In this document: piece by piece, positions 1 through 6,417 of the stretch
How the letters are laid out: each line of letters starts with the position of its first letter
Numbering within the stretch: the first letter of the stretch is position 1
Origin: a virus
Lineage: Duplodnaviria; Heunggongvirae; Uroviricota; Caudoviricetes
DNA length: 6,417 nt
IMG/VR virus record: IMGVR_UViG_2693429748_000018
Direction: 5' to 3' (one strand)
The notes under the pieces: model-generated
Told to the model about the DNA's origin: nothing
The model's input: the letters and a program-made list of their open reading frames with translations, nothing else
Database searches by the model: none
Translations under genes and position numbers: made by a program

Positions 1-419
1 TCCAGTATCCGGATGGTAAGCCGCCGGTATGGGCAAAGTGTACGAAAGGTGTGTATCCGTCTTACTGGGAAGAATGGAAAAAAGTCAGGGAGGTGGTAAA
101 AGTTGCCTGTCCGGAGTGTGGCGGAAAGGGTGAGGTTTCCACCGCCTGTAAGGATTGCCGTGGGCGTGGTGTCGCCATTCATCGTGAAGAGTCGGTAAAA
201 CGTGGTATGCCTGTTATCAGAGACTGCCAGCGTTGTGGTGGTCGTGGCTATGAAAGACTACCATCAACGGAGGCATTTAATGCTATATGCGAGGTGACAA
301 ACCAGATAACACGCGCGTCATGGGAAAAAACAGTTAAGAAATTTTATGATGCGCTGGTGACCCGGTTTGATATTGAAGAAGCATGGGCTGAGCGGCAGTT
401 AAAAAAGGTAACTAGGTAA
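1..419 (+). CDS. Q: Late-gene antiterminator Q, lambda type (3' portion; 5' end lies left of the window)
   Basis: Frame 3 is open from nt 3 to the TAA at 417-419, so the 122-aa track ORF (GTG at 51) is only the C-terminal part of a longer gene. It carries three Cys pairs (CPECGGKG, CKDCRGRG, CQRCGGRG) and a tail ...KKFYDALVTRF...KKVTR that matches, from memory, the zinc-binding C-terminal half of lambda Q. It is immediately followed by a lambda-like pR'/qut sequence. Confidence 0.8.
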   Translation, partial: QYPDGKPPVWAKCTKGVYPSYWEEWKKVREVVKVACPECGGKGEVSTACKDCRGRGVAIHREESVKRGMPVIRDCQRCGGRGYERLPSTEAFNAICEVTNQITRASWEKTVKKFYDALVTRFDIEEAWAERQLKKVTR

Positions 420-421
420 GG

Positions 422-464
422 TTGATTTTTCCGGAATCTGTGGTAAATTCGTCATAACGATGGG
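422..464 (+). promoter_or_regulatory. Late promoter pR' with Q-utilisation/pause region (lambda-like)
   Basis: TTGATT (422-427), 16-bp spacer, TG at 441-442, TAAATT (444-449), then CGTCATA and ACGATGGG (457-464). Lambda pR' reads GGTAAATT-TGACTCA-ACGATGGG (from memory), so the -10 and the start of the 6S transcript are both conserved. Predicted transcription start near 457. Confidence 0.6.
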
Positions 465-498
465 CGTTTTATGCCTGACGTTAGAAGAGTTTCTACAA

Positions 499-520
499 CC
501 CGCCGCCGAGCGGGTTTTTT
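499..520 (+). terminator. Intrinsic terminator, tR'-like, about 45-65 nt downstream of the predicted pR' start
   Basis: Stem CCCGC (500-504) / GCGGG (510-514) with loop CGCCGA, followed by TTTTTT (515-520). Confidence 0.6.
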
Positions 521-640: not shown

Positions 641-838
641 ATGCTAAAACAGCAGGATATGACAGAAACCGCCAGAGTGGTGTTTAATGAATTAAGCGTT
701 ACCGAACCGGCGACAGTCGGGGAGATAGCGCAGAATACTTACCTTTCACGCGAACGCTGCCAGTTAATACTGACCCAGCTGGTTATGGCGGGTCTGGCAG
801 ACTATCAGTTCGGTTGTTACAGACGCCTTCCGCAGTGA
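641..838 (+). CDS. Hypothetical small protein (65 aa), possible helix-turn-helix DNA-binding protein
   Basis: ATG at 641 preceded by AAGGAAAAG (purine-rich Shine-Dalgarno about 6-8 nt upstream). The segment TVGEIAQNTYLSRERCQLILTQL looks HTH-like. The stop sits inside a terminator hairpin. No family recognised. Confidence 0.5.
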   Translation: MLKQQDMTETARVVFNELSVTEPATVGEIAQNTYLSRERCQLILTQLVMAGLADYQFGCYRRLPQ

Positions 839-850
839 AGGCTTTTTTAT
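826..850 (+). terminator. Intrinsic terminator overlapping the stop of the 641-838 ORF
   Basis: Stem GCCTTC (826-831) / GAAGGC (838-843) with loop CGCAGT, followed by TTTTTTATTT. Confidence 0.5.
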
Positions 851-986
851 TTGTGGTAAATGGGCGGCTGGTGGGTGTTAGGGGCACCCACCAGCCATCT
901 GCTCATGCGTTGGGTTCACAAGCAAACCTCAGGCCCACTGCTTTGCGCAAAAGCAGAATGAGCCTATCAGAGACAGGCTAGCTCCC

Positions 987-1062
987 GGCCCTTTAGCTCA
1001 GTGGTGAGAGCGAGCGACTCATAATCGCCAGGTCGCTGGTTCAAATCCAGCAAGGGCCACCA
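987..1062 (+). tRNA. ileZ: tRNA-Ile (anticodon CAU, lysidine type; ileZ/ileX-like); elongator tRNA-Met not strictly excluded
   Basis: 76-nt cloverleaf: acceptor GGCCCTT/AAGGGCC, D-arm GCTC/GAGC, anticodon loop CTCATAA (CAT at tRNA positions 34-36), T-arm GCTGG-TTCAAAT-CCAGC, discriminator A, encoded CCA. Very close to E. coli ileX as I recall it. Confidence 0.85.
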
Positions 1063-1162
1063 TCACAAACCGCCATTAGCTTATCAGGAAGAGCAGACGA
1101 CATGATAACAGGGTTGTTGGTGCGGGGGCGGGTCCCCGATGGCGGTCCATTATCGGTATTCA

Positions 1163-1239
1163 GCGTTGTTAGCTCAGCCGGACAGAGCAATTGCCTTCTA
1201 AGCAATCGGTCACTGGTTCGAATCCAGTACAGCGCGCCA
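1163..1239 (+). tRNA. argO: tRNA-Arg (anticodon UCU; argO/argU-like, reads rare AGA/AGG)
   Basis: 77-nt cloverleaf: acceptor GCGTTGT/ACAGCGC (one G-U pair), D-arm GCTC/GAGC, anticodon stem ATTGC/GCAAT with loop CTTCTAA (TCT anticodon), T-arm ACTGG-TTCGAAT-CCAGT, discriminator G, encoded CCA. Confidence 0.85.
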
Positions 1240-1349
1240 TATTCATTCTTCCAGATTCCTTCCGGCAGAGCCTTATACTGAAATATACCTGGCTCAGGAT
1301 ATTGTTGAAAATATTTTATGTTTGTCAAAAATAAAAGTTCTGTTAAGTA

Positions 1350-1703
1350 TTGATTGAGTGTTTGTTATACGGTCTAATGGTTTTTTCAGCATTAAATATT
1401 TATCATTCATATGGTGTGGGTAGAGTGAATATTGATGAGGCGTCGGGGTGTTTCATCCTTAGGCAGCGTATTGATATAGTCAATGCAGCACGAGCAAAGG
1501 CCTTCAGCCGTTTGACAGTTTTGTTCTGTACTCCTGATCGTCTTTCGGGAAGAGACGTTATTATTCTGAATAGTGATGCTATACAGAGGGTTTGCGATGA
1601 GTTCATGGTTGCTAATTCAGAATTATTTGCTCTTGTTCAGGAGTACAACAGAATAGCCAGGACCTGTGGTATGGATGAACTTCGGATTACTCATCTGGGG
1701 TAG
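1350..1703 (+). CDS. Hypothetical protein; first ORF of the cargo region (track start TTG 1350; first in-frame ATG at 1377 gives 108 aa)
   Basis: Open frame of 117 codons with no family recognised. No convincing Shine-Dalgarno before either start. Possible weak promoter TTGTCA (1322-1327). Coding status uncertain. Confidence 0.35.
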   Translation: MIECLLYGLMVFSALNIYHSYGVGRVNIDEASGCFILRQRIDIVNAARAKAFSRLTVLFCTPDRLSGRDVIILNSDAIQRVCDEFMVANSELFALVQEYNRIARTCGMDELRITHLG

Positions 1704-1907
1704 ATACATATCTGGATTATCACCTGTTACGGTAAAAAGTGATTGCTTACTGTTTTTGTGAATGGCATTGCAGCAGCCGGATAATGTCAGTGCTGGCTGA
1801 CGGTGTGCTGGTGGCGGGTGTGGTGGTTGTTGCTTTCCCGTTGCTGAAAAAGAAAACGCCAGACTGTTAGCCGGGTATCAGTTAGCGGGAGAAATTTTTA
1901 AATACTT

Positions 1908-2130
1908 CACAATTCAGGCGGTTGACTGTTGTCTGGTTTGCGGGGAGTTTGTTAAAAGAAACTGGCATGGTGAATCCCCCTGTGCGGAGGGGCAATCAGC
2001 GAGTAGGTATATGGGATAATCGCGGATTCAGGTGCTGGTACTGAATTCACCGGGAGGCACCCGGCACCATGCAATGGCACATAGCGCCACTCTCCAGCCC
2101 CTCTCCGGAGGGGCTGTTTATATTGATTTT
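1908..2130 (+). repeat. Structured non-coding module, copy A (promoter-like TTGACT, internal hairpins, terminal intrinsic terminator)
   Basis: Begins CACAATTCAG (1908-1917), then TTGACT (1922-1927), hairpin CCCCT-GTGCGG-AGGGG, hairpin CCGGG-AGGCA-CCCGG, ending in terminator stem AGCCCCTC (2096-2103) / GAGGGGCT (2108-2115) with loop TCCG and a T-rich tail. Near-identical to copy B, about 70-75% to copy C. Small ORFs inside are not conserved between copies. Confidence 0.8.
2096..2130 (+). terminator. Intrinsic terminator ending module copy A
   Basis: Perfect 8-bp GC-rich stem AGCCCCTC/GAGGGGCT, 4-nt loop, then GTTTATATTGATTTT. Confidence 0.6.
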
Positions 2131-2148
2131 GTCAGATGTGAGTAAACT

Positions 2149-2180
2149 CCTTATGGACTTTGTTGTTTTAGTCCATAAGG
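2149..2180. repeat. Perfect 11-bp inverted repeat (CCTTATGGACT ... AGTCCATAAGG) with 10-nt loop at the 3' end of the minus-strand gene
   Basis: 2149-2159 is the exact reverse complement of 2170-2180. It overlaps the stop codon of the 2151-2486 minus-strand ORF. Confidence 0.7.
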
Positions 2181-2486
2181 ACATATTTGCAGAGTGCAAC
2201 GGTTATTAAAGCATTCATTCAATACGTTATCTGTATTTGTAGGGCATTCCTGGCTATTTTTGATTGAATTCCAGAATGTTTTATTGAATGGTACTACGTT
2301 GTAAATGGTTACAGGTAGCACTTTGTTATTGAGCATGATGCCTGTGTGAGTCAGTGTAAATATACTTTCAGGAGGTAAGAAAGCATCCGATTGATACCAG
2401 ATTATTAATTTTATTTTACTCCATATGACTGAAAAAGATATTCCGCATGATGGCTGGATAACTGTATCAATCACAATCCACTTCAT
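2151..2486 (-). CDS. Hypothetical 111-aa Cys-containing protein on the minus strand inside an AT-rich insert
   Basis: ATG (plus-strand CAT at 2484-2486) preceded on the minus strand by AACAAGGAAACTAA, a good Shine-Dalgarno (AAGGA) 6-7 nt upstream. Candidate promoter further upstream on the minus strand: TTTACA, about 15 bp, TATACT. The region is visibly AT-rich relative to its flanks. The 3' end overlaps a perfect 11-bp inverted repeat (2149-2180). No family recognised. Confidence 0.5.
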
Positions 2487-2746
2487 TTAGTTTCCTTGTT
2501 TATGCCTTGCTGGTGATGTTCTGAAAAGTATAAATGATATTTTTGAATGTAAACCATAGAGCAGAATTATTTTTCTGATGTTGTTTATTGTTTATTTAAA
2601 TGCAGGGTGGTTTATATCTCGTCTTGTAGTTTATCCATGCATATCTGCTTGATAATCAGGTTTTTATTTAAGGTATGGTTTTGTGTTTTTTCTGTATTAC
2701 ATGTCAGGTATTTTAAAGAATTATTTTTCAGATGGTGGAAAGAACC

Positions 2747-2806
2747 ATGGCATTTAAACACTATGATGTTGTCAGACTGGCTCGCTTTTGCGGGCCTTTT
2801 TTTTAA
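2747..2806 (+). pseudogene. Truncated duplicate of the esterase (nanS-p) 5' end: 19 codons then stop
   Basis: ATGGCATTTAAACACTATGATGTTGTCAGACTGGCT... encodes MAFKHYDVVRLARFCGPFF*. The first 9-10 codons match the start of the full-length gene at 3740 (MAFKHYDVVR...). It is followed by a T-run. Confidence 0.6.
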
Positions 2807-2812
2807 ATGTCT

Positions 2813-3025
2813 CACAATTCAGACGGTTGACAGTTGTCTGTTTTGCGGGGAGTTTGTTAAAAGAAACTGGCATGGTGAATCCCCCTGTGCGGAGGGGCAA
2901 TCAGCGAGTAGGTATATGGGATAATCGCGGATTCAGGTGCTGGTACTGAATTCACCGGGAGGCACCCGGCATCATGCAATGGCACATAGCGCCACTCTCC
3001 AGCCCTCTCCGGAGGGGCTTTTCTG
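2813..3025 (+). repeat. Structured non-coding module, copy B
   Basis: CACAATTCAG (2813-2822), TTGACA (2827-2832), the same two hairpins as copy A, and terminal stem CCCTC/GAGGG with loop TCCG followed by CTTTTCT. Differs from copy A at only a handful of positions over about 205 bp. Confidence 0.8.
3002..3025 (+). terminator. Intrinsic terminator ending module copy B
   Basis: GC-rich stem CCCTC (3003-3007) / GAGGG (3012-3016), loop TCCG, then a T-rich tract. Confidence 0.5.
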
Positions 3026-3213
3026 TGCCGGATACATCACAGTTTCTGGAACCTTAGGTACTACAGTATCAGTCAGGGTGCTATATTTTCAGATGTGATG
3101 AAAGCCTGTCAGCAGGCAGGGCGTATCGGAAATGACCCAGTAGAGAAAACGTTGACTCAGATACCGGTGCTGAGTTACCGGGAAACCGGCATCACATGAC
3201 CGCTATCCTTCCA

Positions 3214-3240
3214 GGCCCATCCGCTCCGGTGGGCCTTTTT
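3214..3240 (+). terminator. Intrinsic terminator just upstream of module copy C
   Basis: Stem GGCCCA (3214-3219) / TGGGCC (3230-3235) with an inner CCG/CGG pairing, followed by TTTTT (3236-3240). Confidence 0.5.
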
Positions 3241-3279
3241 ACTGCAGAAAACAGGTTCCCCGTTAAATGCTATGTTGCT

Positions 3280-3511
3280 CACAATTCAGTAAGTTGACAG
3301 TTGCCTGTCAGACTGGGCATTTGTTAAAAAAATTTCGCATGGTGAATCCCCCTGAGCGGAGGGGCGACTGGTGACGGTATAATCTCTGATTATCAAAACG
3401 AGAATGACGCGGGTTTAGTGGCACCGGGCTGAACTCACCGGGAGGCACCCGGCACCATGTGCATGATGATACAGATACGCGGCTTTAGCCCCTCTCCGGA
3501 GGGGTTTTCTT
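3280..3511 (+). repeat. Structured non-coding module, copy C (diverged)
   Basis: CACAATTCAG (3280-3289), TTGACA, and conserved blocks GGTGAATCCCCCTG.GCGGAGGGGC, CTCACCGGGAGGCACCCGGCACCATG and terminal CCCCTC-TCCG-GAGGGG followed by TTTTCTT. The blocks between them are substituted or inserted relative to A/B, including a perfect TATAAT in GGTATAATC. Confidence 0.75.
3489..3511 (+). terminator. Intrinsic terminator ending module copy C
   Basis: Stem CCCCTC (3489-3494) / GAGGGG (3499-3504), loop TCCG, then TTTTCTT. Confidence 0.6.
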
Positions 3512-3517
3512 GTGGGC

Positions 3518-3546
3518 AAAAAAAGCCCGCGCTGGGAGACGCGGGC
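3518..3546 (-). terminator. Minus-strand intrinsic terminator, convergent with the copy C terminator
   Basis: Plus strand reads AAAAAAA (3518-3524), GCCCGCG (3525-3531), loop CTGGGAGA, CGCGGGC (3540-3546). On the minus strand this is a perfect 7-bp GC stem followed by a U7 run. There is no U-run after it on the plus strand. Confidence 0.45.
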
Positions 3547-3739
3547 GGCAAGGAATAAACAATAAAACGTGAAGTAATATTTCAGCTGGCGAATAATACC
3601 CCATAGTAATCACTCTGCGCAACTGCGCGGTCTTTTTCGAATTGCGGGCTGTCGTCTCTCTTCTGCCATTGTCCTGTAACTTCCGGACTTCAGCCCGCTC
3701 CTTATTTTACTCACAATATTATCCCGGCCGGGAGGATTC

Positions 3740-5593
3740 ATGGCATTTAAACACTATGACGTGGTCAGGGCGGCATCGCCGTCAGACCTTGCGAAACGAC
3801 TGACACAAAAACTGAAGGAGGGCTGGCAGCCGTTTGGTAGTCCGGTGGCCATAACCCCTTATACCCTGATGCAGGCGATTGCAGCAGAAGGTGATGTGGT
3901 CGTCAGTGGTGCAACTGAGCCGGAGTGGTACTACGTCATCGTACTGGCCGGGCAATCCAATGCCATGGCTTACGGTGAAGGTCTTCCGCTTCCGGATTCA
4001 TACGATGCGCCCCATCCGCGCATTAAGCAACTGGCCCGTCGTAACACAGTGACTCCCGGTGGTGAAGTATGCGTATTTAACGACATCATTCCTGCTGACC
4101 ATTGTCTGCATGATGTTCAGGATATGAGTACGATTAACCATCCCCGGGCTGACCTGAGCAAAGGGCAGTACGGCTGTGTCGGACAGGGCTTACATATTGC
4201 CAAAAAACTGCTTCCGTATATCCCTAATAATGCGGGGATCCTGCTGGTACCATGCTGTTGTGGTGGTTCGGCATTCACCCAGGGCACGGAGGGGACATTC
4301 AGCGAGTCCACGGGGGCCAGTCAGGATTCGGCTCGCTGGGGAGTGGGTAAGCCGTTATATCAGGATCTGCTTTTCCGCACGAAGGCAGCATTGCAGAAAA
4401 ACCCGAAAAACGTTTTGCTGGCGATATGCTGGATGCAGGGGGAATTCGATATGACGAATGCCAGTTACGCCCAGCAGCCAGCAGCATTTCTTGCAATGGT
4501 ACAGCAGTTCCGTGCTGACCTTGCCGGGCTGGCGGCGCAGTGTCACGGTGGAAGTCCGGCATCAGTCCCCTGGATTTGTGGCGACACGACATACGCGTGG
4601 AAACAAGAACACGGTACGCAATATGAAGTGGTATATGGTGCATATAAAGGTAAAGAATCCCAGCAGATTTATTTTGTTCCCTTTATGACCGATGGTAGCG
4701 GAGTTAATACACCGACAAACAACCCGTCAGAAGATCCTGATATTGCCGGGTCTGGTTATTACGGTTCGGCATCCCGAACGAACAAAAACTGGGTATCATC
4801 AAATCGCCCGACGCATTTCAGCTCATGGGCGCGTCGTGGCATTATTCCCGATCGTATGGCAACTGCTATTCTGAACGTAGCCGGTCGCACCTTAGCCTTC
4901 ATTAGTGGTAAGGCACCGGAAATCAAACCCTCGCCCGGCGGCGACACGCCATCGGGGCCGTCTGAAGATGCATCCATACGCACAATCTCCCTGTTGCCGA
5001 CAGCCGGAGACGCTGCTGCGCAGGGCTGGAGCATTAAGAATGGCGGAGTTCAGTTGTCAGATGGTGTATTTAAGATCACCAAGCAGAGCAATAAAGCCTG
5101 GTCCCTGACGCGCCCGGTGGATGACGCAGTCTCCCTGCTGACACGGGGTGGCAGACTGAGCTGTAAGTTTCGACTGTCAGGCGCACTGACCAACAACCAG
5201 TTCGGTCTGGGAATTTATCTGTATACCGATGTAGCGTTACCTGACGTCGTGGCGATGACCGGGACTGGTAACCCGTTCCTGATGTCGTTCTTCACCCAGA
5301 CCACAGACGGCAAACTGAATCTGATGCATCACAAGAAAGCAGGAAACACAAAGTTGGGCGAGTTCGGGAATTACAGTAACGACTGGCTGACGCTGGAGCT
5401 GGTGTTCACCGCCGGCAGTGCCACGGTTACTCCGAAACTGAATGGAGTGGCTGGCCCGGCATTCCAGGTCATAAAAGACAGTCTGACACTGGGGCTGAAT
5501 GCGCTGACGCTGACGGATATTACCAAAAATGCAGCGTATGGCGTTGAGATAGAAAGTCTGGTGCTGGAGATAAATGCACCGGCATCATCATAA
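3740..5593 (+). CDS. nanS-p: Prophage-encoded sialate (9-O-acetyl-N-acetylneuraminic acid) O-acetylesterase, NanS-p/YjhS family (SGNH/DUF303-type), 617 aa
   Basis: ATG at 3740 with a strong Shine-Dalgarno (GGGAGG 7-8 nt upstream). The N-terminus MAFKHYDVV... and the conserved block VLAGQSNAMAYGEGLP (GQSN catalytic-serine motif of sialate O-acetylesterases) match the nanS-p ORF found just downstream of stx in Stx phages and in other lambdoid prophages. The smaller ORFs nested in both strands are shadow frames. Confidence 0.88.
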   Translation: MAFKHYDVVRAASPSDLAKRLTQKLKEGWQPFGSPVAITPYTLMQAIAAEGDVVVSGATEPEWYYVIVLAGQSNAMAYGEGLPLPDSYDAPHPRIKQLARRNTVTPGGEVCVFNDIIPADHCLHDVQDMSTINHPRADLSKGQYGCVGQGLHIAKKLLPYIPNNAGILLVPCCCGGSAFTQGTEGTFSESTGASQDSARWGVGKPLYQDLLFRTKAALQKNPKNVLLAICWMQGEFDMTNASYAQQPAAFLAMVQQFRADLAGLAAQCHGGSPASVPWICGDTTYAWKQEHGTQYEVVYGAYKGKESQQIYFVPFMTDGSGVNTPTNNPSEDPDIAGSGYYGSASRTNKNWVSSNRPTHFSSWARRGIIPDRMATAILNVAGRTLAFISGKAPEIKPSPGGDTPSGPSEDASIRTISLLPTAGDAAAQGWSIKNGGVQLSDGVFKITKQSNKAWSLTRPVDDAVSLLTRGGRLSCKFRLSGALTNNQFGLGIYLYTDVALPDVVAMTGTGNPFLMSFFTQTTDGKLNLMHHKKAGNTKLGEFGNYSNDWLTLELVFTAGSATVTPKLNGVAGPAFQVIKDSLTLGLNALTLTDITKNAAYGVEIESLVLEINAPASS

Positions 5594-5678
5594 AAAGTGA
5601 GCCAGCCAAATGGAAGGTATCGTTAAACTCACCGGTAGTGTCAGTGGGTCGTCTGAGATGCCTGCATGAGTTATCAGA

Positions 5679-5710
5679 GCCATCAGTACTTAACTGGTGG
5701 CTTTTTTTAT
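5679..5710 (+). terminator. Intrinsic terminator between the esterase gene and the lysis cassette
   Basis: Stem GCCATCAG (5679-5686) / CTGGTGGC (5694-5701), 8 bp including one G-U pair, loop TACTTAA, followed by TTTTTTTATT (5702-5711). Confidence 0.6.
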
Positions 5711-5743
5711 TGTTGTCAGCTTCCGGATAACGGGAGACGGGGT

Positions 5744-5959
5744 ATGTACCAGATGGAAAAAATCACAACAGGTGTGTCATACACCACGTCAGCGGTGGGA
5801 ACGGGCTACTGGTTCCTGCAGTTGCTGGACAGGGTTTCCCCGTCTCAGTGGGCGGCAATAGGCGTGCTGGGGAGTCTGCTGTTTGGGCTGCTGACATATC
5901 TGACTAACCTGTATTTCAAAATCAGAGAGGACCGTCGTAAGGCTGCACGGGGAGAGTAA
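5744..5959 (+). CDS. S: Class II holin (pinholin), S21/EssD-like, 71 aa, with dual-start motif
   Basis: [71 protein letters not shown] is near-identical over most of its length to the phage 21 S / E. coli EssD holin as I recall it. ATG at 5744 is preceded by GGAGACGGGG (Shine-Dalgarno), and Met1 and Met4 (5744 and 5753) form the usual antiholin/holin dual start. The 97-aa track ORF from 5666 is an in-frame upstream extension that crosses the 5679-5710 terminator and lacks a ribosome-binding site. Confidence 0.9.
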
Positions 5960-5963
5960 TTCA

Positions 5964-6278
5964 ATGACTCAAAACTATGAACTGATTGTGAAAGGGATCC
6001 GCAATTTTGAGAATAAAGTTACGGTAACTTTAGCGTTACGGGACAAAAAACGCTTTGACGGTGAAATTTTTGACCTGGACATCTCGCTGGACCGTGTTGA
6101 AGGTGCCGCGCTGGAGTTTTATGAGGCAGCAGCCAGAAGGAGCATCAGACAGGTCTTCTTGGATGTTGCTGCCGGGTTATGTGAAGGGGACGAGCTGTTG
6201 CCAGAAACGCGCCCCTGTTCAGAGGCGCGGTATACCATAAAAATTAACAGTTCTGATAACTCGATTACGGGTTGTTAG
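5964..6278 (+). CDS. Hypothetical 104-aa protein between holin and endolysin (same position and size as ydfR-like DUF ORFs in E. coli lambdoid prophages)
   Basis: ATG at 5964, 4 nt after the holin stop, with GGGGAGAG (Shine-Dalgarno) 5-12 nt upstream, so it is translationally coupled to S. I recall a roughly 103-aa ORF (ydfR) at this position in the K-12 Qin prophage; its sequence identity is not verified. Confidence 0.65.
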   Translation: MTQNYELIVKGIRNFENKVTVTLALRDKKRFDGEIFDLDISLDRVEGAALEFYEAAARRSIRQVFLDVAAGLCEGDELLPETRPCSEARYTIKINSSDNSITGC

Positions 6279-6333
6279 CTTTTTGCAGTTGGCTTTCCAG
6301 TATCTTTCATTGGTAGCATCCTGATAAATATCC

Positions 6334-6417
6334 ATGAGCGCAAAAATCAAATACGGCCTGTCAGCTGCTGTTCTGGCGCTGATTGCAAAATGGCATCTGA
6401 ATCGATCGCAGTTTGGC
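6334..6417 (+). CDS. R: Probable endolysin (lysozyme R) N-terminus; partial, continues past the right window edge
   Basis: ATG at 6334 and the frame is open for 28 codons to the window end. MSAKIKYGLSAAVLALIA... is a hydrophobic, signal-like N-terminus that I recall from prophage lysozymes of the RrrQ type. Its position directly after the holin and small ORF fits an S-(orf)-R-Rz cassette. No obvious Shine-Dalgarno; identity is tentative. Confidence 0.5.
   Translation, partial: MSAKIKYGLSAAVLALIAKWHLNRSQFG

Follow-up and report, generated by a model that had tools for sequence, protein, structure and literature searches.

The accessory slot of a stx-negative lambdoid prophage as a probable patchwork of known modules with STnc100 and iraL

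Morons are known in the late region of Shiga toxin (Stx) phages (PMC8065619). In the Stx2a phage Stx2_EH1910 (LC567834.1), this region runs from the tRNAs over a terminator, stx2AB, STnc100 and an iraM homologue to nanS-p and the holin gene. STnc100, a small RNA (sRNA), was reported 75 nt downstream of stx2 and has been found as RNA in vesicles (PMC12370729). It is a structural relative of the PasD sRNAs of enteropathogenic Escherichia coli (EPEC), which adjoin prophage esterase genes (bioRxiv 10.64898/2026.05.13.724894). These PasD sRNAs are Hfq-dependent, and PasD1 and PasD2 were validated as RNAs of ~170 nt by Northern blot and by sequencing of ligated, interacting RNAs (RIL-seq) (PMC8550237). 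IraL of E. coli CFT073 binds RssB and stabilises RpoS, and its sigma-70 start has been mapped (PMC4045071). The DNA described here, 6,417 nt of the IMG/VR record IMGVR_UViG_2693429748_000018 (Duplodnaviria; Heunggongvirae; Uroviricota; Caudoviricetes) and hereafter called the window, very probably represents the accessory ('moron') slot in the late operon of a stx-negative lambdoid prophage from the Shigella sonnei / E. coli pool, filled with known modules in a patchwork. It is a new mosaic of known modules and no new kind of system.

Comparison with described loci and the stx cassette

The map of the window was built from six-frame open reading frames (ORFs), ARAGORN, Rfam, Pfam, NCBIfam and PHROGs. 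Compared with Stx2_EH1910, the window has the same type of Q antiterminator (90% nucleotide identity over the Q region 1-979), a 65-aa (amino acid) ORF, the tRNA set, the terminator behind the tRNAs, STnc100, nanS-p, the holin gene and an opposite-strand gene of the IraM family (72% at the amino acid level). This synteny, with no stx, agrees with the initial annotation, in which the DNA was taken for the late region of a stx-negative lambdoid prophage. Stx2_EH1910 differs by its methylase gene, its intact argN and, placed between the terminator and STnc100, a stx2AB cassette of 1332 bp. Only one STnc100 copy is present there, and orf92/117 (a 117-aa ORF described below) and DUF3927 are lacking.

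It had also been claimed that no ORF in the slot (1240-3739) resembles StxA or StxB, with any stx homology there, even degraded, as the decisive test. The Stx1A/B and Stx2A/B proteins of two annotated Stx phages were used as tblastn queries against the window, giving a best E-value of 0.35 and nothing coherent, whereas the same queries find stx2AB in the control phage with E-values of 0 to 1e-31. Word-7 blastn of the stx1 and stx2 cassettes against the window returned nothing beyond a non-coding terminator of 27 nt (2779-2805) and, in the STnc100 promoter region, a weak match. Degraded stx in the window was therefore rejected, and both claims stand.

The terminator is the left edge of what appears to be an empty site:

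2779-2805, plus strand: intrinsic terminator, normally 3' of the third tRNA (terminator scan; 26/27 to positions 3859-3885 of the Stx2a phage L004)

In Stx2a phages, its counterpart lies immediately 5' of the stx2A promoter. To the right, window 2808-2898 aligns with L004 5218-5308, starting 42 nt after stx2B. Since both flanks match L004 in this way, 2779-2898 can be read as an empty site from which exactly 1332 bp with stx2AB are missing. The limits of the stx2 cassette are thereby set near the base pair, from behind the post-tRNA terminator to 42 nt past stx2B. The STnc100 module begins 42 nt past the stx2B stop codon in the Stx2a phage and 45 nt past that of stx1B in the Stx1a phage, which gives the latter the same right-hand cassette limit.

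The empty order (three tRNAs, the terminator and then directly STnc100) is also found in E. coli 55989, ATCC 11775 and strain 2D and in S. sonnei 53G, and non-toxigenic E. coli and Shigella widely carry a matching empty site. ATCC 11775 and strain 2D further share with the window the decayed STnc100 copy, the second STnc100 and the antisense sRNA ahead of nanS-p, ATCC 11775 being 99.9% identical to window 2980-3760. At these loci of 55989, ATCC 11775 and 2D there is no iraL module, unlike in the window, and 55989 has one STnc100.

A true Stx-converting phage ancestor that lost stxAB by deletion, of the 'EHEC (enterohaemorrhagic E. coli) that lost Shiga toxin' type, would fit the Stx-phage-type flanks, the 26/27 match to the terminator just 5' of stx2A and the resumption of homology 42 nt after stx2B. 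However, the stx remnant in the window is zero, and the first slot holds a different conserved gene pair. Over 104 nt, the terminator-STnc100 junction shows 100% identity in many unrelated E. coli (55989, O104:H4 and O55:H7 among them). An old and widespread empty allele accounts for this better than precise deletions that happened repeatedly; the empty junction also occurs in S. sonnei 53G and ATCC 11775, and the cassette has no flanking repeats to drive a precise excision. Loss of stx is therefore considered highly improbable, and the reading of a stx-negative slot with known modules is retained.

The initial annotation regarded the whole cargo of the slot as a replacement for stx. Only a part of this can be upheld. 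Because the Stx2a phage has STnc100 and an iraM homologue between stx2AB and nanS-p, it is normal for STnc100 and iraL to lie beside stx. Judged from the sequence, the positional equivalent of stxAB is only orf92/117 with DUF3927 (window ~1253-1895). What seemed a mysterious replacement for Shiga toxin thus consists of described modules which normally flank stx.

Outside the Stx phages, the iraL locus of the potB/potC-island prophage of CFT073 (PMC4045071) shares with the window Q (PF03589 type), tRNAs, the orf92/117 region, DUF3927, STnc100, iraL and the 5' end of nanS-p, with the mapped iraL mRNA start kept. Window 981-2775 is 98.0% identical to it. The CFT073 locus differs in having three intact tRNAs and an IS200 insertion sequence after Q, in the lack of a second slot, and in its nanS-p, a truncated pseudogene with the holin gene directly behind. 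The PasD2-esterase-PasA locus in prophage PP2 of EPEC E2348/69 resembles the window in its Q, DUF3927, sRNA, sialate esterase and holin (PMC8550237; bioRxiv 10.64898/2026.05.13.724894), but its PasD has another body and seed and scores below the STnc100 gathering score. When PasD1 and PasD2 of E2348/69 were compared with the window copies of STnc100, only nt 1-39 aligned, at 79%, and the copies were not assigned to PasD. A PasA homologue was looked for between nanS-p and the holin gene of the window and ruled out by its absence.

STnc100, iraL and orf92/117 as cargo

The 117-aa ORF (1350-1703), the repeated modules (1882-2100, 2787-3005 and 3278-3460) and the AT-rich minus-strand gene (2151-2486, 35% GC) which the initial annotation had listed are all present. 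In the map, the slot carries the following features:

1350-1703, plus strand: orf92/117, the 117-aa ORF of a predicted helical-hairpin protein in the stx-equivalent position (phrog_2873, E 3.8e-70)
1739-1870, plus strand: DUF3927 small hydrophobic protein, 43 aa (PF13064, 95.6 bits, gathering score 25; phrog_1470)
1936-2125, plus strand: STnc100 copy 1, short form (Rfam RF02076, 132.4 bits; fold z -3.1)
2151-2486, minus strand: iraL, RssB anti-adaptor of the IraM family (NCBIfam NF007393, 162 bits, cut-off 121)
2841-3030, plus strand: STnc100 copy 2, short form, 94% identical to copy 1 (Rfam, 123.6 bits)
3069-3242, plus strand: decayed STnc100-like element which keeps its terminator (3213-3236) (Rfam, 30.1 bits, below the gathering score)
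3308-3517, plus strand: STnc100 copy 3, long form (Rfam, 161 bits)
3518-3606, minus strand: sRNA candidate, convergent with STnc100 copy 3 (fold z -2.1)

With a gathering score of 47 bits for RF02076, the tandem modules are identified as STnc100 genes, the three full copies each spanning model positions 1-206; two further matches (30 and 27 bits) fail this score. The short and long forms differ in the single-stranded linker ahead of the terminator. With the mapped 5' end of PasD, GCAUGGUG, as a guide, the likely 5' ends are placed at 1965, 2870 and 3337, and for copy 1 the transcript probably runs from 1965 to ~2120, with its terminator at 2095-2116. Copy 3 is 87% identical to the copy 3' of stx2B in the Stx2a phage. 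In S. sonnei 53G, ATCC 11775 and strain 2D, copy 2, the decayed copy and copy 3 naturally follow one another in tandem; copies 1 and 2 are adjacent solely through the join in the window. In an Rfam scan of the window at E <= 1, only STnc100, tRNAs and sub-threshold noise (OmrA-B, 25 bits) were listed. AsxR, AgvB and other EHEC sRNA families were rejected, having no Rfam match in the window.

The published 11-nt complementarity between STnc100 and stxB was not reproduced with the EH1910 phage or the window copies, which gave a shared 9-mer only. The fact that STnc100 is kept and multiplied without stx argues that its main role is not stx regulation, contrary to the proposal of one paper.

It could also be supposed that the STnc100 modules are cis elements of the late transcript (for processing, termination, antitermination or as recombination linkers) and that the small ORFs are non-functional filler. 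STnc100 always lies on the late-operon strand between cassettes, where it marks both exchange points, the decayed copy retains its terminator, and the 117-aa ORF is uncalled by the Prokaryotic Genome Annotation Pipeline (PGAP) in three RefSeq relatives. The covariance matches (124-161 bits), however, take in the 5' multi-stem domain and thus reach beyond the terminator, the related PasD1 and PasD2 are validated Hfq-dependent RNAs (PMC8550237), STnc100 RNA is present in vesicles (PMC12370729), and orf92/117 is under purifying selection and has a confident fold. This makes a purely cis-acting role very doubtful, and sRNA genes beside true small genes are the preferred reading.

The AT-rich antisense gene noted earlier could be identified as iraL. 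Its product is identical to CFT073 IraL in 110 of 111 aa, the window allele being L74S relative to CFT073, compared with 61% identity to K-12 IraM. An assignment as iraL rather than iraM was made for at least 95% identity to CFT073 iraL together with the iraL promoter and 5' untranslated region, both of which are found here. The iraL mRNA start is placed at 2519 on the minus strand, where the sequence published from rapid amplification of cDNA 5' ends (5'-RACE) matches in 31 of 32 positions. A PhoP-box-like repeat, TGTTTA-TTGTT-TATTTA, is found with one mismatch at 2582-2598, 63-79 nt 5' of this start; a PhoP box upstream of iraL was rejected, as its matches are no more than chance (2 versus 1.98 expected). 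The precomputed Pfam label on IraL is PF11183 (PmrD), and no Pfam match came from our hmmscan at E <= 0.01. PmrD is another small connector protein which binds a response regulator.

The initial annotation called the 117-aa ORF weak. This could not be maintained, as the ORF is probably a real gene. Its residues 10-117 cover positions 1-108 of the phrog_2873 profile, a full-length match (E 3.8e-70). A comparison with a full-length, 56%-identical homologue gives a ratio of nonsynonymous to synonymous substitution rates (dN/dS) of 0.36 at a dS of 1.04, and the AlphaFold2 model shows two long helices in a hairpin with a predicted local distance difference test (pLDDT) score of 88.9. Profile searches with the ORF reached 22 cluster representatives, down to 21-40% identity. 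Besides the start at 1350, there are alternative starts at ATG 1377 (108 aa) and GTG 1425 (92 aa); the conserved core is likely the ~92 aa from GTG 1425, since many homologues have a length of 91-95 aa and begin at profile position ~25. Searches of Pfam, NCBIfam and PADLOC gave no family for orf92/117, no PDB sequence match falls below E 0.04, and Foldseek against the PDB returned generic helical hairpins only, none at E <= 0.001. The DUF3927 gene next to it is labelled a 'TciB-like' moron in PHROGs, and it sits 5' of STnc100 or PasD in CFT073, 042 and E2348/69. In a Logan contig (L011; SRR29325574, 1-1686), a 56%-identical orf117 homologue lies between an AraC-type (HTH_18) regulator gene and another STnc100, and from this gene order the linkage of orf92/117 with STnc100 therefore occurs in a different context as well.

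The layout of the minus-strand candidate at 3518-3606 comprises a 5' hairpin, a U-rich single strand and a terminator with U7. Over 54 nt it shares 91% identity with an EPEC RIL-seq candidate (E2348C_1409.E2348C_1408.IGR) and sits exactly at the AgvB site of the Stx1a phage, the position and the terminator alone resembling AgvB. No covariance match to AgvB (RF02702) was obtained in the window at E <= 1. The arrangement suggests allelic sRNAs at one site, the AgvB position. The body of this RNA is U/G-rich, unlike that of AgvB.

Patchwork structure and the two joints

Aligned with S. sonnei 53G (HE616528.1), the window falls into three parts:

1-979: 53G locus 2 (~2.10 Mb), no difference but a 3-nt indel
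980: left joint, a single A found in neither parent locus; the methylase gene of locus 2 is absent here
981-2775: 53G locus 1 (~1.319 Mb), 1795/1795
2747-2775, plus strand: nanS-p remnant, its first 29 nt, ending at the right joint (repeat D5, 2737-2775 versus 3730-3768)
2776: right joint, a single A found in neither parent locus
2777-6417: 53G locus 2, 3641/3641

The earlier description of the slot as remodelled is thus borne out, as a three-part patchwork of two 53G loci in which a second, 'empty' slot lies behind the first. Compared with locus 2, 1370 bp (the methylase gene, three tRNAs and 13 nt) are exchanged for 1797 bp. In 53G itself, the tracts lie in separate prophages, and locus 2 has the methylase gene and three tRNAs in place of the locus 1 tract; both loci have the same orientation on the chromosome. 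E. coli 042 likewise matches the middle part (981-2775), at 99.6% identity. According to the alignment, nanS-p continues past the remnant point in 042, AF39 and L016, a contig described below. The start codon and ribosome-binding site of nanS-p at 2747-2806 open a remnant ORF of 19 codons, MAFKHYDVVRLARFCGPFF*, which crosses the right joint into the terminator.

The joints were searched for by exact-pattern scans (GTDB, JGI and IMG/VR) and by BLAST of joint-spanning stretches (E. coli and INPHARED). Both are absent from 5426 complete E. coli genomes, the GTDB representatives, the JGI metagenome contigs, IMG/VR and 41 fetched loci, and the right joint is also absent from the INPHARED phages. 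Exact look-ups gave no record of the junction-spanning ORFs. These results would suit an assembly, consensus or construction chimera of paralogous prophage loci ~0.8 Mb apart in a S. sonnei-like genome, as would the 100.000% identity of both long segments to separate loci of one genome and the single untemplated A at each joint. Shigella assemblies, however, were covered indirectly in these searches, by exact protein look-ups. A de Bruijn mis-join was set aside, since the parents have <=3 nt in common at the joints and a mis-join in a k-mer graph is not expected from so short an overlap. In contrast to chimeras from random ligation, the order of the three pieces is syntenic and they are collinear and equally oriented, and the 3-nt indel sets the window apart from 53G itself. 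A comparable double slot is moreover found in an independent assembly (L016). Therefore, a chimera is regarded as unlikely. As far as the alignments allow, the favoured reading is a real patch between prophages of the same host, made by microhomology or template switching, because the pieces are collinear and equally oriented and the parental loci have the same orientation in 53G.

The independent contig (L016; GCA_900158365.1, FTVJ01000050.1, 1-8678) carries a natural double slot with three STnc100 copies, as in the window. Its first slot consists of the methylase gene, three tRNAs, the terminator, STnc100, iraL and a 62-aa nanS-p remnant, and its second slot of a 765-aa methylase fusion ORF, three tRNAs, the terminator, STnc100, the decayed copy, STnc100 and nanS-p.

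The slot is therefore modular across these loci, with two exchange points. Point A, from the tRNA terminator to STnc100, holds nothing, stx2AB or orf92 with DUF3927, and point B, from STnc100 to nanS-p, holds iraL or an iraM homologue, AgvB, or the decayed STnc100 followed by STnc100 and the antisense sRNA. The window consists of one filled slot (981-2775) followed by one of the empty type (2777-3739). Such a stack may have arisen when a 1.8-kb tract of one prophage replaced the methylase-tRNA tract of another, most likely by template switching. A two-port cassette exchanger anchored on STnc100 (with stx1AB also at port A), combined with a genuine template switch which stacked two slots, is put forward here only tentatively. 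If it holds, one prophage has gained three STnc100 paralogues with two seed regions, the boundaries for gain and loss of stx are given to the base pair, and an 'empty-site' marker would separate never-toxigenic prophages from derivatives that lost the toxin. Provided that the joints are real, two prophages within a single Shigella genome have exchanged a patch non-homologously, and the window is a record of this.

Transcription model and flanking genes

The slot is flanked by the following features:

51-419, plus strand: C-terminus of a QuuQ-type Q antiterminator, 122 aa (273 aa in relatives; PF03589 Antiterm, E 6.5e-32)
422-516, plus strand: candidate late promoter pR' and terminator tR' (inspection and terminator scan)
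641-838, plus strand: conserved phage ORF of 65 aa (phrog_331, E 1.4e-37; WP_000917767.1 in RefSeq relatives)
825-842, plus strand: terminator 3' of the 65-aa ORF
987-1062, plus strand: tRNA-Ile2 with CAU anticodon, ileZ type (ARAGORN; Rfam tRNA, 72.5 bits)
1070-1149, plus strand: decayed tRNA-Arg in the argN position (alignment to S. sonnei 53G and the Stx2a phage, whose three-tRNA sets are intact)
1163-1239, plus strand: tRNA-Arg, UCU, argO type (ARAGORN, Rfam)
3740-5593, plus strand: nanS-p, prophage sialate O-acetylesterase, 617 aa (DUF1737, SASA and DUF6645)
5744-5959, plus strand: class II (P21 S-type) holin (PF04971, E 2.3e-32)
5964-6278, plus strand: YdfR/DUF1327 protein, not an endolysin (PF07041, E 5e-39)

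The architecture is that of the late region of a Stx-converting lambdoid phage, with a late antiterminator Q followed by pR'/tR' (the latter read by inspection and terminator scan only) and with nanS-p followed by the holin gene S. The candidate pR' reads TTGATT-16-TAAATT, and 6 nt further on AACGATGGG is read by inspection at 456-464. The candidate tR' is a strong hairpin with a U-tract at 497-516 (terminator scan), and the fold of 455-523 has a z of -2.4. We take 422-516 to resemble lambda pR', presumably with its sigma-70 pause element and tR'. In total, the terminator scan lists 17 terminator-like hairpins in the window versus 3.0 +/- 1.7 expected, eight of them on the plus strand between pR' and nanS-p.

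In a lysogen without Q, pR' transcripts would halt at tR' (497-516). After induction, Q-modified polymerase would pass the terminators and reach nanS-p and the lysis genes. Since tR' and at least seven further plus-strand terminators precede nanS-p, we infer that nanS-p and the lysis genes are expressed only with Q. The tRNAs, sRNAs and iraL, on the other hand, may be expressed from the resident prophage on their own signals. The two tRNAs would decode the rare codons AUA and AGA. The three STnc100 sRNAs would each have their own promoter-like region and terminator, in two linker and seed variants (copies 1 and 2 versus copy 3). iraL would be transcribed from a sigma-70 promoter of its own, in the direction opposite to the late operon, and IraL would bind RssB and shield RpoS from ClpXP during growth. 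Among these steps, only the mechanism of IraL is experimentally backed, by way of the near-identical CFT073 gene.

Several points weigh against the reading of a naturally patched moron slot with self-driven cargo. Besides the absence of both joints from the searched collections, the STnc100 promoters are by-eye readings, with none listed by a consensus scan, and the Q dependence of read-through is deduced from the architecture only.

The initial annotation gave the flanks as Q, tRNA-Ile, tRNA-Arg, nanS-p, S and R. Pfam and ARAGORN support all of these except R, as the holin gene is followed by the YdfR gene at 5964-6278 and the window stops at 6417, upstream of the lysozyme gene known from relatives. 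The ileZ-argN-argO tRNA set listed there for Stx-converting phages is found in part, with two intact tRNAs (CAU and UCU) and a decayed middle argN position. The argN remnant still has conserved acceptor and T arms and a scrambled anticodon arm, and ARAGORN makes no call there. The CAU tRNA is labelled Met by ARAGORN, and the identical gene is tRNA-Ile in RefSeq relatives. The argN position (tRNA-Arg UCG) is likewise decayed in 042, AF39 and mEp460, and, unlike in the window, three intact tRNAs are present in CFT073 and in S. sonnei 53G locus 2.

The C-terminal piece of Q (51-419) shares 99.7% identity with S. sonnei 53G, and the NanS-p protein is identical to its 53G counterpart. In relatives, an N6/N4 DNA methylase gene almost always trails the phrog_331 ORF; it is cleanly missing in the window. 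The pR'/tR' region at 422-523 would yield a short transcript of ~60 nt in the position of the Stx-phage sRNA StxS. The phrog_331 ORF follows Q genes from at least three unrelated families and is found in ~32,000 collection blocks.

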